Shown here: piece by piece, positions 5,877 through 57,421 of the stretch
Layout of the letters: each line of letters starts with the position of its first letter
How positions within the stretch are numbered: the first letter of the stretch is position 1
Origin: an uncultured Candidatus Saccharibacteria bacterium
Lineage (GTDB): Bacteria > Patescibacteriota > Minisyncoccia > Phycocordibacterales > VMEP01
Assembly: GCA_964579635.1 (NCBI GenBank)
Contig: CAZOFV010000002.1
Location: forward strand, 1,371-65,370
Reading direction: 5' to 3'
DNA: 64,000 bases
Position numbers and translations under genes: made by a program
Notes under the pieces: generated by a model
What the model was told of the DNA's origin: nothing
The model's input: the letters and a program-made list of their open reading frames with translations, nothing else
Databases searched by the model: none

Positions 5877-6119
5877 ATGAATACTGACTGTGCCAAAGAA
5901 AATGTTTTGAAGGACAACGAGGAATTCGTCGCCTTTCTTCACGAAAACGCGCGTAAAGAAAAAATTCCCGCCACCTGCGACAAGTTGTGGCTCGCCAATG
6001 TTTGGCGGAACAACAGGGGTCTTTTCGCAAACCTCTTCGTTCTGTACACAGGGAAAGCCGTTCTTGTCCCGCAAATCGACTCGTTCTTCCAGCAAGCCGC
6101 CGAGTCGTACAAGGGCTAG
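5877..6119 (+). CDS. GC-rich orphan small protein, paralog 1 (80 aa)
   Basis: SD AAGAGGAGGA before the ATG. Shares the ATCDK and C-terminal FFQQAAESYKG motifs with the downstream paralog. Followed by a hairpin terminator. Confidence 0.6.
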   Translation: MNTDCAKENVLKDNEEFVAFLHENARKEKIPATCDKLWLANVWRNNRGLFANLFVLYTGKAVLVPQIDSFFQQAAESYKG

Positions 6120-6135
6120 CCTTTCCCTTCAACAA

Positions 6136-6165
6136 AAAGTCCCGCATTGTGCGGGGCTTTTCTAA
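6136..6165 (+). terminator. Rho-independent terminator of paralog 1
   Basis: CCCGCA-ttg-TGCGGG hairpin followed by GCTTTTCT. Identical to the copy after paralog 2. Confidence 0.6.
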
Positions 6166-6243
6166 TATTAACGTTTCCAAAAAACGTGATAGTATCACTG
6201 TAGCCGTAACTTCAATCAAATAAACTTAGAAGGAAAACATCAA

Positions 6244-6489
6244 ATGAATACCGCTAGTGTTGCCCCAACAAATGTACTGGAAGACAACAAAGAATTCGTC
6301 GCCTATCTTCACGCGCACTCCAGGGGAAGAAATGTTCCCGCAACCTGCGACAAGTCGTCATTATCCGATTATTGGCAAGGCAATAGACGCTTTTTCGTGG
6401 AAACATTCACAAGCTGTACCGGCAAGGCCGTCAACATCAAGAACATTCGCGAATTCTTCCAGCAAGCCGCCGAGTCGTACAAGGGCTAG
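6244..6489 (+). CDS. GC-rich orphan small protein, paralog 2 (81 aa)
   Basis: SD AGAAGGAAAA before the ATG. About 40% identity to paralog 1, with the last 11 codons and 3' UTR identical. A candidate promoter TTAACG-N16-TAGTAT overlaps the palindrome GTGATAGTATCAC (6186-6198). Confidence 0.6.
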   Translation: MNTASVAPTNVLEDNKEFVAYLHAHSRGRNVPATCDKSSLSDYWQGNRRFFVETFTSCTGKAVNIKNIREFFQQAAESYKG

Positions 6490-6505
6490 CCTTTCCCTTC
6501 AACAA

Positions 6506-6535
6506 AAAGTCCCGCATTGTGCGGGGCTTTTCTAA
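6506..6535. terminator. Rho-independent terminator shared by paralog 2 (+) and bcp (-)
   Basis: Same CCCGCA-ttg-TGCGGG hairpin as at 6136-6165. Confidence 0.6.
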
Positions 6536-6538
6536 TTA

Positions 6539-19628: not shown

Positions 19629-20108
19629 TTATGCAGCTGGTGCTTCTTCTGCCGGAGCTTCAACAACCACTTCTGCTTGCGCTGGGGTTTCTGCTACTAC
19701 CTCCGCCTGTGCTTCAACTGGAGCCTCTTCCACTACCGGTACTTCAGCTGGAATTTCTTCAGGAGCAGGAGTTGCGACTGGTGCTGGTGTAGGGGCTGCG
19801 GGAGCTTCTGCTTTAGCTGGTTCGTCTTTTTTGATAGGACTTTTCTTAGGCAAAACGTTTCTTTTCTTTCCATCAATAATTTTTTTCTCAACTAGGAAAT
19901 TATGCATTGTGTCTGAAGGCAAAGCTCCATGTGACATCCAATGCAAAACGCGATCAGCCTTAACAATGAAGTTGCCGAGCTTAGGTTCATAAGAACCGAT
20001 GACCTCAACGAAATTACCCGTCTTTGGGCTTTCGCGATGATCAACAACAACCACGCGGAAGTGCGGGCTGTTCTTTCGTCCTATTCTTTGTAACCTAATT
20101 TTTAACAT
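19629..20108 (-). CDS. rpsP: 30S ribosomal protein S16 with an Ala/Pro/Glu-rich C-terminal tail
   Basis: N-terminus MLKIRLQRIGRKNSPHFRVVV. The ORF track starts 12 codons earlier. The C-terminal low-complexity region (APAAPTPAPVATPAPEE...) explains the local GC rise. Confidence 0.85.
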   Translation of the reverse strand: MLKIRLQRIGRKNSPHFRVVVVDHRESPKTGNFVEVIGSYEPKLGNFIVKADRVLHWMSHGALPSDTMHNFLVEKKIIDGKKRNVLPKKSPIKKDEPAKAEAPAAPTPAPVATPAPEEIPAEVPVVEEAPVEAQAEVVAETPAQAEVVVEAPAEEAPAA

Positions 20109-20165
20109 GCAGGCAATACTAATAGAAATGGCCCGATAGGTCAAGCTTATTTTTTTAGCTTTTGT

Positions 20166-20241
20166 CTTTAAAAACGCGCATAAAACTTTGCTAAGTTTTT
20201 GCTATGCTCGTGCCGTCGCACTGCGCAATGTTTTTAAAAAC
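20166..20241. promoter_or_regulatory. Conserved structured element, copy 1 (upstream of rpsP)
   Basis: Outer inverted repeat CTTTAAAAAC/GTTTTTAAAAAC, core AAAACTTTGCTAAGTTTTT, inner hairpin GTGC-cgtc-GCAC, then TGCGCAA. Sits just upstream of a predicted rpsP promoter TTGACC-N17-TAGTAT. Confidence 0.45.
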
Positions 20242-20353
20242 AAAAGCAGGGACTAGAAAAGACAAGAATATCCTATCCAAGAGCACCCCCCTTAAAGGTT
20301 CTAATCACCCAATCTAACCAATTTTGGCCACTTTTGTGTTATGATTTGAACCC

Positions 20354-26986: not shown

Positions 26987-27886
26987 TTATTTCTTCAAAA
27001 GAACGCCTACTGCTTTTGTGATGATTGGCACAATATCATCATAAAGATTCAAAGAAGGAACTTCCGTTACAGGGAACCATCTTGAATCATCGAGTCCGCC
27101 AACTTTCTCTGTTGTAAGTGTGACAACCGGCGATTCAGCAAGATAATAACAAACCTGCTTCCTTAGCCTACCTTTTTCTGGGTCAGTTGCAAGATACTCA
27201 TTATCTCCAATTTTTTCTTTAACTGTAACTGGAATTCCAAGCTCTTCTTTGGTTTTTCGATTAACCGCTTCTTCGTCGGTCTCGCCTTCTTGCAGATGAC
27301 CCTTAGCAAGCGTCCAGTGTCCAAAAATATCGTGAACCAAAGCAAGCTGTAAAACACCGTTTCCCCAACCAAAAACAATTGCACCAATTAATTTATCAAT
27401 TGGGAGTTTTTCTATGTCTTCCGGGTCTTTGCTGTGTTTATTTTTACTCGTATCATCTTTTCCTGGTTCGCCCAACTCTTTATAGACCGCACCCAAAACT
27501 CCATTAACAAATTTTCCACTATTCTCTCCGCCAAAAGATTTTGCCAATTCAATTGCTTCGTTGATTGCAACCTTTGGTGGAACCTCGAGTCTATCTGCAA
27601 AAAGAAGCTCAAAGAGCCCTAAACGTAAGATATTTCTATCAACTGCTGCAATTCGATCAATCGGCCAAGCTGGTGCCGCTTTTTCTATAATGTCGTCTAG
27701 TGTTTTTGTACGAGAAGCAATATTGACGGAAAGTGTACGCATAAAATCTGCGTCACTTGTTCCTGGGGCAAATTCTTCAATATTTCTTTTTAAGGTGTCT
27801 TCTAGAGTATTTTCCGGCTGGCCATTAAAATCCCACTCAAAGAGGGTTTGGAGAACTATTGACCGTGAAAGGTGCCTATTAGCCAT
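26987..27886 (-). CDS. nusB: NusB antitermination factor fused to a C-terminal NUDIX hydrolase domain
   Basis: N-terminal about 140 aa NusB fold. C-terminal Nudix box GHWTLAKGHLQEGETDEEAVNRKTKEELGI. Confidence 0.75.
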   Translation of the reverse strand: MANRHLSRSIVLQTLFEWDFNGQPENTLEDTLKRNIEEFAPGTSDADFMRTLSVNIASRTKTLDDIIEKAAPAWPIDRIAAVDRNILRLGLFELLFADRLEVPPKVAINEAIELAKSFGGENSGKFVNGVLGAVYKELGEPGKDDTSKNKHSKDPEDIEKLPIDKLIGAIVFGWGNGVLQLALVHDIFGHWTLAKGHLQEGETDEEAVNRKTKEELGIPVTVKEKIGDNEYLATDPEKGRLRKQVCYYLAESPVVTLTTEKVGGLDDSRWFPVTEVPSLNLYDDIVPIITKAVGVLLKK

Positions 27887-27913: not shown

Positions 27914-28138
27914 TTATTTTACCGCCGAAGCTTTCTTAGCCTTCTTTTCTTTCTTCGCTATCTTTTTGTTTACATCAAGTACCTGGCGACCACGGTAAGT
28001 ACCGCAGTTCGGGCAGACCCGATGCGTAAGGTGCGGTGCCGCACATTTCTCGCACTTAGATAACGAACCCCCCACTAATGCGTGGTGGGAACGGCGATTG
28101 CGGGTGTGAGCCCGCGTGTGTCTCATTCGTACAACCAT
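27914..28138 (-). CDS. rpmF: 50S ribosomal protein L32
   Basis: RRSHHAL...CxxC...[13 protein letters not shown] zinc-ribbon signature. Confidence 0.85.
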
Positions 28139-28195
28139 AACTTGCGTAGTATTACAAAAAGAGACAAAAAAGTAAAGGTTTCATTTTTAAACACA

Positions 28196-28277
28196 CACCA
28201 CTAAAATACACGCGTAAAATTCTGCTGAATTTTCGCTCTGCTCGATTCGTCAATCTGCGCAAGGTATTTTAGTGGTG
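28196..28277. promoter_or_regulatory. Conserved structured element, copy 2 (upstream of rpmF)
   Basis: Outer inverted repeat CACCACTAAAATAC/GTATTTTAGTGGTG, core AAAATTCTGCTGAATTTT, inner hairpin GATT-cgtc-AATC, then TGCGCAA. Confidence 0.45.
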
Positions 28278-28311
28278 TATGCGGGGTACGGAATACGTAA
28301 AATTTATCTAA

Positions 28312-50763: not shown

Positions 50764-50833
50764 TTAAAATTTCAGTATTCATAAAAAAAGAGACTGTGTT
50801 ATATAACACAGTCTCTTTTTTTATGAATTTATT

Positions 50834-50907
50834 GGAGCCGCCTCTCGGATTTGAACCGAGGACCCTCGCTTTACAAAAGCGACGCTCTACCACTGAGCTA
50901 AGGCGGC
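50834..50907 (-). tRNA. tRNA-Thr (anticodon UGU), CCA encoded
   Basis: Minus-strand cloverleaf: acceptor GCCGCCT/AGGCGGC, D-arm GCTC-AGTGGTA-GAGC, anticodon stem TCGCT/AGCGA with loop TTTGTAA, T-arm CTCGG-TTCAAAT-CCGAG, then TCCA. Confidence 0.85.
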
Positions 50908-53814: not shown

Positions 53815-54048
53815 CTAAGACTTCTTAGCTACTTTCTTAACTGGTTCCGCTGCTGCTCTTCGCTTCTTGAATCTTTCAACGCGACCAGCGGTATCGATAA
53901 CCTTTTCGTTACCTGTATAGAATGGGTGGCAAGAACTACAAATTTCAACGTTTATCTCTGGCAAGCCAGAAGAAACGACATATGTCGCTCCACAGGCGCA
54001 AGTGGCCTTGATTTCATCGTTATATTTAGGATGGATATCTTTCTTCAT
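53815..54048 (-). CDS. rpmE: 50S ribosomal protein L31
   Basis: MKKDIHPKY... with CxCG...C..CHPFYTG. Confidence 0.9.
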   Translation of the reverse strand: MKKDIHPKYNDEIKATCACGATYVVSSGLPEINVEICSSCHPFYTGNEKVIDTAGRVERFKKRRAAAEPVKKVAKKS

Positions 54049-54104
54049 AAGCCCGTACTTTACTAGAAAGCGCTCAAATTTGCAAATGTGTCTTTTTCAC
54101 TTTT

Positions 54105-54183
54105 CCTTTTTAAAAACACGATAAAATTCTGCTGAATTTTTCTCTACTCGCGCTCATCGCGCTCCGTAAGGTTTTTAAAAAGG
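54105..54183. promoter_or_regulatory. Conserved structured element, copy 3 (upstream of rpmE)
   Basis: Outer inverted repeat CCTTTTTAAAAA/TTTTTAAAAAGG, core AAAATTCTGCTGAATTTTT, inner hairpin GCGC-tcatc-GCGC, then TCCGTAA. Sits upstream of the predicted rpmE promoter TTGCAA-N17-TAAAGT. Confidence 0.45.
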
Positions 54184-54224
54184 AAAAGTCTAGATTTTTT
54201 AAGAAAAATCAGGGTAAAAATGAA

Positions 54225-55640
54225 CTACACCCCCTTCAAGAAATCAATATTGGCCTGAATATCTTCAGCTTTTTGCAAAACCTGTGTCCCATAAAAAGAG
54301 TTGGCTGGTCTTTGGTTATCACATCTCCTGCCAGAATAATACCTACAGGCTGCGTTTCTTTCAGCGCTATAACTACCACTCACCGCCCCAAGGTCTGACA
54401 GATAAATTGCTGTTGCCGTAAACGAGTGTTCTGGATTCCATGGATTTGCTTCATTTTGAGAAACACCAACAGCGCTTGCTATACGCTTCTTGAAAAGTTC
54501 CCATGTTGAAGGAATAAATTGTGAAGGACCCATTCCCCCACCATAACCGCGAGAAGACGACCACGTAGCCTTAGGAGGACATGATACTGGTGTAATTTTC
54601 CAATCCAAATTTAATCTATTTGTAATATCTTTAAACGGTTCTGTATCTCTTGGTGATTTCATTACTTTCTCAAAAAATGTCCCCGTATTTTTACCAACAC
54701 CATCACCTGTATCAAGACTAGATAAAATACATGAGCCCTGGTTTTTACCAAGATCAGATTCTTGGGTGAGGATTGCTAAGATAAGCGCTGGTCTAATGCC
54801 GGTCTTTTCGCTGGCAAAATTTGCATACTCAAGAGCTTTGGCGAAAGGAATTCCTTCACTATCGCGAAGCTTAAAAAGAGCTGCCCTGATTTGTGCGGCC
54901 CTTTTCTGCCTTTCACTCAACACAGCCTGATACCCACTTGCTTCAGTTTTTGTAATAGCTAGAAGTTTTTTCTTTTCAGATTCTGTTTGAGCAATTGTTT
55001 TTTTCTTCACCTCTACAACATATTTTGCATCAGCTTCTTCGTTTTTTTGTTTATCTAATTTTTGGCGCTCTTCTTCGGTAATAGCCTTAACTTCTCGTAC
55101 GTTAGTAAAATGTTCCTTCATTTCATTTTTTATTGAATCGTAAGAATCAATATCCTGAAAAAACTCCGAGACACTTTCCTCAGAGAAAAATACTTCAGCT
55201 AAAGTTTTGGAATCTATCTCATTTGTTTTTCTTATAATCTGTGCGAGTGACCTGCGCCCATCATCAAGTTTTCCTTCGAGAGTTTTAATTTTTTTACTTT
55301 TATCAGCGATTTGTGTGCCAAGTTTTGAAATAGCTATATTTTTTTGCCTTATCATTAATTCCGCTTCTTTTATTTTTGCGGTAAGGATAGAGATATCTCC
55401 TTGGATAGTGTTAGCTTTCTGCCTGGTGTCATCTAAAATTTTCTGCCAATTACCAATTTCTTTCTGCAGAGCATCGTATTCAGCCTGAAGTTTTGCCTCT
55501 TGTTGTGCCACCTGATCTGCCGATTGAGCACTAACAATAAACCCAGGTACTAGAAAAATACCAAACAAAACTATCACTAAAACTAATTTATTAAAGAAAA
55601 TATTAAATTTCATATAGGAAACTAAAAAACCAAGGAACAC
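54225..55640 (-). CDS. Membrane-anchored coiled-coil protein with a C-terminal lytic-transglycosylase-like (SLT-like) domain
   Basis: N-terminal TM, about 250 aa coiled coil. C-terminal ILTQESDLG and GGMGPSQF motifs. Confidence 0.45.
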   Translation of the reverse strand: MFLGFLVSYMKFNIFFNKLVLVIVLFGIFLVPGFIVSAQSADQVAQQEAKLQAEYDALQKEIGNWQKILDDTRQKANTIQGDISILTAKIKEAELMIRQKNIAISKLGTQIADKSKKIKTLEGKLDDGRRSLAQIIRKTNEIDSKTLAEVFFSEESVSEFFQDIDSYDSIKNEMKEHFTNVREVKAITEEERQKLDKQKNEEADAKYVVEVKKKTIAQTESEKKKLLAITKTEASGYQAVLSERQKRAAQIRAALFKLRDSEGIPFAKALEYANFASEKTGIRPALILAILTQESDLGKNQGSCILSSLDTGDGVGKNTGTFFEKVMKSPRDTEPFKDITNRLNLDWKITPVSCPPKATWSSSRGYGGGMGPSQFIPSTWELFKKRIASAVGVSQNEANPWNPEHSFTATAIYLSDLGAVSGSYSAERNAACRYYSGRRCDNQRPANSFYGTQVLQKAEDIQANIDFLKGV

Positions 55641-57320: not shown

Positions 57321-57421
57321 TTGAAAATTATTATAACACGCAGTTTTTCTTAGCACATCTTGCTATAATTTTACACCATAAATGCTTTCACTCCGCCATC
57401 TAAAAATGTTAAAATAAACAC

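Follow-up and report, generated by a model that had tools for sequence, protein, structure and literature searches.

Just upstream of rpmE, the gene for ribosomal protein L31, the 64,000-nucleotide stretch of DNA analysed here (the window) carries a conserved, structured palindrome that recurs in front of two other ribosomal protein genes. Does this element control the genes that follow it, as its position suggests, or is it present at these sites for another reason? We approached the question through the fold of the element, its relation to the rpmE promoter, and its distribution in related genomes.

Architecture and covariation of the element

An inverted-repeat search placed the arms of the rpmE-proximal copy (copy 3) at 54099–54117 and 54171–54189; each arm is 19 nt long, the two are 100% complementary, and 53 nt lie between them. 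A reading of the letters alone (the sequence-only reading) had reported shorter arms, CCTTTTTAAAAA and TTTTTAAAAAGG, which are located where it had placed them, at 54105–54116 and 54172–54183, as parts of the full 19-nt arms. The fold of copy 3 has an energy of −34.4 kcal/mol (z = −5.7), and none of 200 shuffled sequences folded as well; each window copy has a fold energy far below those of its own shuffles. On the minus strand, which is the strand of all of the neighbouring genes, copies 1–3 share a single three-way junction made of three stems, P1, P2 and P3.

P1 is A/U-rich and has 18–19 bp across the window copies. In copy 3, its 5′ arm (ACUUUUCCUUUUUAAAAAC, 54171–54189, minus strand), one half of the perfect inverted repeat, pairs in the fold with the 3′ arm (GUUUUUAAAAAGGAAAAGU, 54099–54117, minus strand), which both the inverted-repeat search and the fold identify. 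P2 (54145–54168, minus strand) is predicted to stand on a 3-bp base (UAC/GUA), above which lie a 3 × 2 internal loop (GGA/GA; G-S-A opposite G-A across the three window copies), a 4-bp GC hairpin and the loop GAUGA. P3 (54120–54142, minus strand) is a predicted A/U hairpin of 9–10 bp with one bulged A and an AGCA loop at 54130–54133. Sequence shared between copies extends beyond P1: a 5′ flank (GAUUUUUCUUAAAAAAUCUAG, 54190–54212, minus strand) travels with the subfamily of copy 3, preceding related copies at other loci and in other genomes, and an A-rich 3′ flank (GAAAAAGA, 54091–54098, minus strand) is common to family members. The consensus AAAAAAGAA / AAAAGAAA follows P1 in both subfamilies. 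We had considered an outer stem formed by the shared flanks (‘P0’, UUUUCUU/AAGAAAA), and rejected it because it is absent from the extended folds, in which the 5′ flank of copy 3 is predicted to make a small A/U hairpin of its own.

Copies 1 and 2 (20158–20247 and 28192–28281, both on the minus strand) have arms of 18 nt each with 54 nt between them (20158–20175 and 20230–20247; 28192–28209 and 28264–28281). Copy 1 lies 49 nt upstream of rpsP (S16; ATG at 20108), in a divergent region shared with the RNase R gene, and copy 2 lies 53 nt upstream of rpmF (L32; ATG at 28138) and downstream of rnhB. The interiors of the three copies can be aligned with one another, and the P2b hairpin reads GUGC, GAUU and GCGC in the three, with covariation. 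Since compensatory changes distinguish the copies, the family escaped a direct-repeat finder and came to light in the inverted-repeat search. A covariance-model search, of the kind that the sequence-only reading had proposed, was applied to all of the window with no filters and returned exactly these three copies as strong matches (94–106 bits), with the next sense match below 20 bits. With three copies of one architecture and strong covariation among family members, the description of copy 3 as a conserved structured element is borne out. In Rfam 15, the sole match at the gathering threshold is a tRNA, and admitting E values up to 10 added chance-level microRNA-type matches only, with no ribozyme or intron family among them.

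Pairing is supported by changes on both sides of the stems. In seven sequences (the three window copies and the rpmE-upstream copies of related contigs), 24 of the 35 pairs are compensated, and a paired gap at columns 53 and 75 is found in copy 3 and in contig L003. The AGCA loop of P3 is invariant in these first seven copies, and the pattern used to gather further copies demands this loop. Among 53 distinct copies from many Patescibacteria genomes, 98.3% of the pair cells are paired and double changes occur at 32 of 35 pairs; when the partners were slid by 1–3 columns as a control, pairing was only 40–55%. Double changes affect every pair of P1 but one and all ten pairs of P3, and all four pairs of P2b covary. 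The arms of P1 remain inverted repeats of 18–22 bp across copies; their outer sequence varies between copies and is maintained solely through compensatory change, so that what is conserved is the pairing itself and the inner AAAAAC/GUUUUU. Conservation of the core is partly by construction, because the loci of the large alignment were gathered with a pattern that fixes several core positions. Wobble pairs in the stems number 52 G·U and 10 A·C when read on the sense strand. This roughly five-fold excess indicates that the selected fold is that of one strand, either RNA or single-stranded DNA, and not of duplex DNA.

Several other features of the window were recorded alongside. S16 (19629–20108, minus strand) ends in a low-complexity tail of about 70 residues that is rich in Pro, Ala, Glu and Val; its close homologues have 147–157 amino acids and more distant ones about 100. 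Downstream of rpmF lies a gene for a NusB–NUDIX fusion protein (26987–27886, minus strand), with RNase III next in related contigs. A loopless, perfect 26-bp palindrome (50777–50828) adjoins tRNA-Thr (50833–50907). Between 62746 and 63517, a perfect 23-nt hairpin, ACTTGGAGGTTGAACCTCCAAGT, occurs four times at a spacing of 216–288 nt; the four may be terminators that separate short repeated genes, or may form a further family of small repeats. At 6084–6166 and 6454–6536, 370 nt apart, there is an exact direct repeat of 83 nt that ends in a GC hairpin and a T-run, as if the end of a gene, terminator included, had recently been duplicated in tandem.

The putative rpmE promoter and the position of copy 3

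Copy 3 occupies the interval between rpmE (53815–54048, minus strand; Pfam PF01197, 99 bits) and an upstream gene for a protein of 471 amino acids (54225–55640, minus strand), which was taken from the list of open reading frames (ORFs) and has weak Pfam matches to SLT/SLT_2 of about 25 bits. The stop codon of the latter precedes P1 by 35 nt. The sequence-only reading had put about 55 nt between the element and the rpmE ATG, which agrees with the 50 nt measured from the end of P1 and the 56 nt measured from 54105. It had also seen a TTGCAA-N17-TAAAGT promoter-like sequence in between, and this too is present: the site (54057–54085, minus strand) consists of TTGCAA at 54085–54080, a 17-nt spacer and TAAAGT at 54062–54057, lies outside the repeat, and ends 8 nt from the ATG at 54048. 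A consensus scan did not list it because just 8 of 12 positions match the consensus. The block is invariant in 10 of 10 related contigs with an identical L31, whereas the adjacent element varies.

Promoter-like sites of the same layout precede the other two ribosomal protein genes, with TTGACC, a 17-nt spacer, TAGTAT and 7 nt before the ATG of rpsP, and TTTACT, a 16-nt spacer, TAATAC and 10 nt before that of rpmF. Of the 49 long genes of the window, 3 have a Shine–Dalgarno-like motif, and 20 have a −10-like TANNNT, frequently extended by TG, whose end lies 6–9 nt from the ATG. The scarcity of the former and the closeness of the latter to the start codon make rpmE, rpmF and rpsP look most likely leaderless, or nearly so, judging from these sequence motifs; the element would consequently lie upstream of the start of transcription. 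The host organism apparently relies largely on leaderless or very short-leader mRNAs. The cis-acting role at rpmE and other ribosomal protein genes that the sequence-only reading had implied fits poorly with an element that precedes the promoter of a gene whose mRNA probably has no leader.

The terminator scan listed none at copy 3, the A/U-rich stem of which is followed by GAAAAAGA and no U-tract. The effect of copy 3 on rpmE is probably neutral. At most, it may have side effects: it could leave a stable structure at the 3′ end of transcripts that read through from the upstream gene, and might serve as a substrate for RNase III or as an A/T-rich, UP-like tract abutting the −35 hexamer.

Copies in other genomes and inside genes

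An exact-pattern scan of one genome per species found 50 loci, nearly all of them in Patescibacteria metagenome-assembled genomes (MAGs), including 8 in the 680-kb LiPW_30 scaffold, more than 10 in CAYPVT01 and at least 8 in CAZCND01; these counts are lower bounds because the exact pattern covers part of the family. Within the scanned loci, the covariance model identified more than 55 full copies, many at contig ends and several in tandem arrays, and some copies adjoin one another in opposite orientation. Many contigs of CAZCND01 and related MAGs end inside a copy, which indicates that the repeat fragments assemblies. The tandem arrays of CAZCND01 and related MAGs (L025, L036, L051, L053 and L059) have a near-constant linker of 20–31 nt. 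Members of a subfamily have P1, about 20 nt of 5′ flank and the A-rich 3′ flank in common, from which we infer a copied unit of about 120–130 nt. At least five copies are preceded by a 5′-truncated remnant of another copy, one of these being the rpmE-upstream site in L007 and L009. No match to the core pattern was found in a viral contig collection. One pattern match in a ‘Gammaproteobacteria’ MAG (L058) was rejected as a chance match without stems; another, in L048, is a genuine copy, though a divergent one whose binning is uncertain.

The sites taken up by the element are diverse. Copies are found upstream of rpoB or of an unrelated gene, antisense between rnc and smc, and 3′ of the RNase R gene. 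Where a copy lies between two co-directional genes, it is in the sense orientation in 14 cases and antisense in 14, according to rough ORF calls. Most copies of the LiPW_30-like lineage lie against a promoter and are in the sense orientation; a preference for such targets, tolerance of insertions there or co-option could each account for this bias. In L016 (8492–8605 and 6255–6362), the element occurs in longer variants that have two extra hairpins between P2 and P3. In two MAGs (L040, 246–347; L023, 3562–3664), copies of the main family are accompanied by another palindromic repeat, AAGAATAGTTCCACAAAAGAGG ... CTCTTTTGTGGAACTATTCTT, which is weakly related to them.

Orthologous sites can be filled or empty. 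The region upstream of rpsP contains an element in the window and, in the longer form with its two additional hairpins, in L016, and none in L013 or L014, which have the same promoter; in L013, the S16 of which is 88% identical, both the rpsP promoter and the start are kept. The S16 homologues are named as Paceibacterota or Nomurabacteria, and the window itself derives from a groundwater member of the Paceibacteria/Parcubacteria. In the divergent region at fba, LiPW_30 carries a copy (L038, 5683–5780) and the window has an empty spacer of 64 nt (57357–57420). No target-site duplication is evident in these two filled/empty pairs, the boundaries of which are not clean because both filled sites carry extra remnant sequence. 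Upstream of rpmE, an element is present in 10 of 10 contigs with identical L31 (the identical L31 occurs in GCA_007375595.1). Compared with the window, identity is 84–96% for the flanking coding sequences of its relatives and, from contig to contig, 91%, 70% or 53% for the element. An element so much less identical than its flanks has been replaced rather than merely diverged, and in relatives the rpmE-upstream copy is indeed swapped for copies of other subfamilies.

Some copies lie inside protein-coding genes. In four genomes, the element is inserted in rsmE directly before the IGPEGGW motif, and one genome each has it inside fmt and inside a uvrD-type helicase gene; the host ORF is open throughout in all of these. 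Among the 120 best RsmE homologues, 52 contain an element-derived peptide (40 in the sense orientation, with three frame patterns, 11 antisense, and 1 as an antisense and sense tandem) and 64 are short; several more in-frame remnants occur among the 120. The in-gene copies represent at least five different combinations of frame and orientation, always with an open reading frame. This retention of frame across orientations suggests that in-gene copies are translated and speaks against their removal at the RNA level. One short rsmE allele, examined as DNA, has kept both arms of P1 and lost about 66 nt of the core. When AlphaFold was applied to one RsmE that carries the insert, the insert (residues ~171–200) scored about 51–55 and the blocks of the remainder 84–94; the low confidence of the insert fits a tolerated surface loop.

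Searches for further host proteins added little. An exhaustive search of a representative library gave 42 matches, nearly all of them spurious ORFs of 26–90 amino acids; the others include a KsgA-like protein that is disrupted at the element and out of frame from there on, and a pilin-like protein that carries the element at the 5′ end. A padded peptide-profile search returned only 8 tiny ORFs. Dozens of database ‘proteins’ of 26–90 amino acids (P0241–P0259 and similar entries) are spurious, being conceptual translations of intergenic copies. A GC-rich core that lacks P1 is found at the extreme 3′ end of prfA in L003 (4293–4350), and also in L005 and L010; it replaces the last codons, and the product has 324 amino acids, against 329 in the window. 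The special tie to rpmE and ribosomal protein genes that the sequence-only reading had implied finds no support in this wider sample, in which the element is absent at rpsP in relatives, exchanged between subfamilies, present inside genes and in arrays, and found in either orientation.

A probable selfish repeat and its alternatives

[quoted passage not shown] That the family is mobile is suggested by how its copies are distributed among the sequenced genomes. The unit is a three-way junction of about 90 nt, in which conserved junction nucleotides hold P1, P2 and P3 together, and the form that matters would be a folded single strand, of RNA or single-stranded DNA. If only structurally intact copies propagate, the heavy covariation would follow. 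Mobilisation most likely occurs in trans, by a postulated enzyme that recognizes the folded junction, and copies would afterwards decay by core deletion, nesting and recombination. In so compact a genome, copy 3 would sit in the sole dispensable space, which is bounded by the upstream stop codon and by the promoter of the seemingly leaderless rpmE. Against the selfish reading stands the placement of the window copies, all of which are in gene-sense orientation and 49–53 nt before the starts of small ribosomal protein genes; they may have been co-opted locally, for instance as upstream promoter elements or insulators. Nor did the genome fragments covered by the analysis yield a transposase, HUH enzyme, reverse transcriptase or any other candidate partner.

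A more specific proposal, which we hold only tentatively and think rather unlikely, is that the active agent of a new small mobile element is the three-way-junction core by itself (about 55–65 nt of RNA or single-stranded DNA). At the RsmE site, the sequences would allow that the core alone moves into or out of a hairpin, or inverts between the arms. Such a core, recognized by an enzyme or itself catalytic, would copy into A/T-rich hairpins and promoter-upstream DNA in either orientation; entry in either orientation would explain why sense, antisense and tandem cores lie between the same arms in RsmE, as well as the short allele that consists of arms only. If this were so, minimal genomes would harbour a structure-guided mobility that needs neither the recognition of terminal repeats nor target duplication. 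In L045, two copies lie inverted to each other at a distance of 3.5 kb. We considered whether they form a composite transposon and rejected this, since the ORFs between them, judged by eye, resemble an aminoacyl-tRNA-synthetase-like gene and hypothetical genes and include no obvious transposase.

Deep covariation and the G·U bias would be expected equally of an RNA that serves the host. The element could accordingly be a multi-copy small-RNA gene that acts in trans or structurally and is expressed from a promoter in its own 5′ flank. Its strand-specific fold and conserved junction nucleotides are compatible with this, and the conserved, A/T-rich flank of about 20 nt could hold a −10 box. The flanks of the two subfamilies differ, however, and show no consistent −35/−10 pair; the element is followed by an A-rich sequence and no terminator. 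Copy number and positions differ among close relatives, copies in essential genes are translated in both orientations, and copies decay by core deletion. These traits suit a parasite better than a host RNA gene, and we therefore judge a host function of this kind improbable.

A cis-regulatory leader common to rpmE, rpmF and rpsP, either a binding site for an autoregulatory protein or a riboswitch-like sensor, is marginally less probable still. It would account for the three window copies on the coding strand, 49–53 nt before the ATG codons of L31, L32 and S16, for a conserved structure with a sense-strand G·U bias, and for the presence of a copy upstream of rpmE in all ten contigs with the same L31. 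Yet a −35/−10-like site intervenes between element and ATG in each case, its −10 hexamer ending 7–10 nt from the start codon in a genome in which Shine–Dalgarno motifs are nearly absent, so that the element seems to lie outside the mRNA, upstream of the promoter. Furthermore, rpsP retains its promoter without an element in L013 and L014, other copies occur before rpoB, antisense to rnc/smc, 3′ of the RNase R gene and inside coding sequences, and no Rfam leader family matched. The leaders of L31 genes in Rfam are likewise structured, upstream of rpmE and on the coding strand; ribosomal protein leaders differ from the element in that the latter stands upstream of a promoter, is common to unrelated genes and enters ORFs.

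To much the same low degree, the palindrome might act as DNA, as a cruciform or protein-binding site that insulates or activates the adjacent promoter, or might be the terminator of the upstream gene. Copies 2 and 3 begin 27–35 nt past the upstream stop codon and end about 12 nt before the −35 hexamer, P1 and its flank are rich in A/T tracts, as UP elements are, and the interval from the upstream gene to rpmE contains no further hairpin of terminator type. A double-stranded site would not be expected to show a five-fold excess of G·U over A·C, and homogenization of cruciform arms does not explain the covarying 4-bp P2 and the P3 hairpin. As a terminator, the A/U-rich P1 without a U-tract is unlike those of the window, which have GC stems followed by T-runs, and neither function fits copies inside ORFs in both orientations; an effect on DNA or on termination may arise as a by-product. 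That the element is a tiny intron, or is otherwise excised from transcripts by a self-cleaving or self-splicing core, is scarcely credible: the junction with its conserved nucleotides and the single rsmE site shared by many genomes would suit it, but in-gene copies and even partial remnants keep the frame open, as expected only if they are translated, and no ribozyme or intron family of Rfam matched at E values up to 10.

For the selfish repeat that we favour, the closest analogue appears to be the Rickettsia palindromic element (RPE), which frequently inserts in frame into unrelated genes and adds a tolerated peptide (PMC10969869). The resemblance would be one of function only. Both are palindromic repeats of ~100–150 bp in reduced genomes, dispersed between genes and present in frame in unrelated housekeeping genes. 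The hosts of RPEs are Alphaproteobacteria, whereas those of the present family belong to the ultra-small Paceibacteria of the candidate phyla radiation (CPR), and the simple long hairpin of RPEs contrasts with a conserved three-way-junction core, a single-strand G·U signature, and one protein loop that has received the element in both orientations and several frames.

Correia elements of Neisseria and ERIC sequences are short, non-coding, multi-copy repeats with inverted-repeat ends; they are polymorphic between strains, are often found beside promoters and can fold in transcripts. With classical MITEs, our family shares the small size, the lack of coding capacity, multiple copies, adjacency to promoters and presence/absence polymorphism, the last seen upstream of rpsP, in the fba divergent region and for the rsmE core; its ends are inverted repeats of variable outer sequence. 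It differs in that no target-site duplication was seen in two filled/empty pairs, in that no parent IS with ends like its own came to light in the genome fragments analysed, and in that arm sequence is unconserved, the covariation reflecting a selected fold and not recent copying. REP/REPIN sequences and palindromic elements derived from IS200/IS605 move as single-stranded hairpins by means of HUH/Y1 enzymes; they are defined by structure, lack terminal inverted repeats of the transposase type and target duplications, and form clusters or arrays. The present repeat is similarly defined by its structure, has a strand-specific fold, lacks both target duplication and terminal inverted repeats of the transposase type, and occurs in clusters or arrays. 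Unlike REPs, its consensus has no GTAG-type head; its P2 and P3 are dissimilar, whereas the left- and right-end hairpins of IS200/IS605 are alike; and it differs from both groups in having no orientation bias relative to neighbouring genes.

The repeat family appears to be new for CPR bacteria, as neither Rfam nor the searchable literature holds a prior description; our search of publications on CPR, Parcubacteria and Paceibacteria returned none. The genomes of these bacteria are among the smallest and most streamlined known and have not been considered hosts of proliferating repeats. On the evidence of this family, they carry a structured and probably selfish element, with an estimated dozens of copies per ~0.7-Mb genome. 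It reshapes promoter-upstream regions and inserts peptides of 22–35 residues into the essential enzymes RsmE, Fmt and UvrD. After the RPEs of Rickettsia, reduced genomes would thus provide another example, of separate origin, of selfish DNA that is read in frame. In practical terms, the element breaks assemblies, seeds databases with spurious small ORFs and can be mistaken for a riboregulator; the covariance model from this analysis provides a means of annotating it. The conserved junction and the strand-specific fold hint at an undescribed, testable mechanism of mobilisation.
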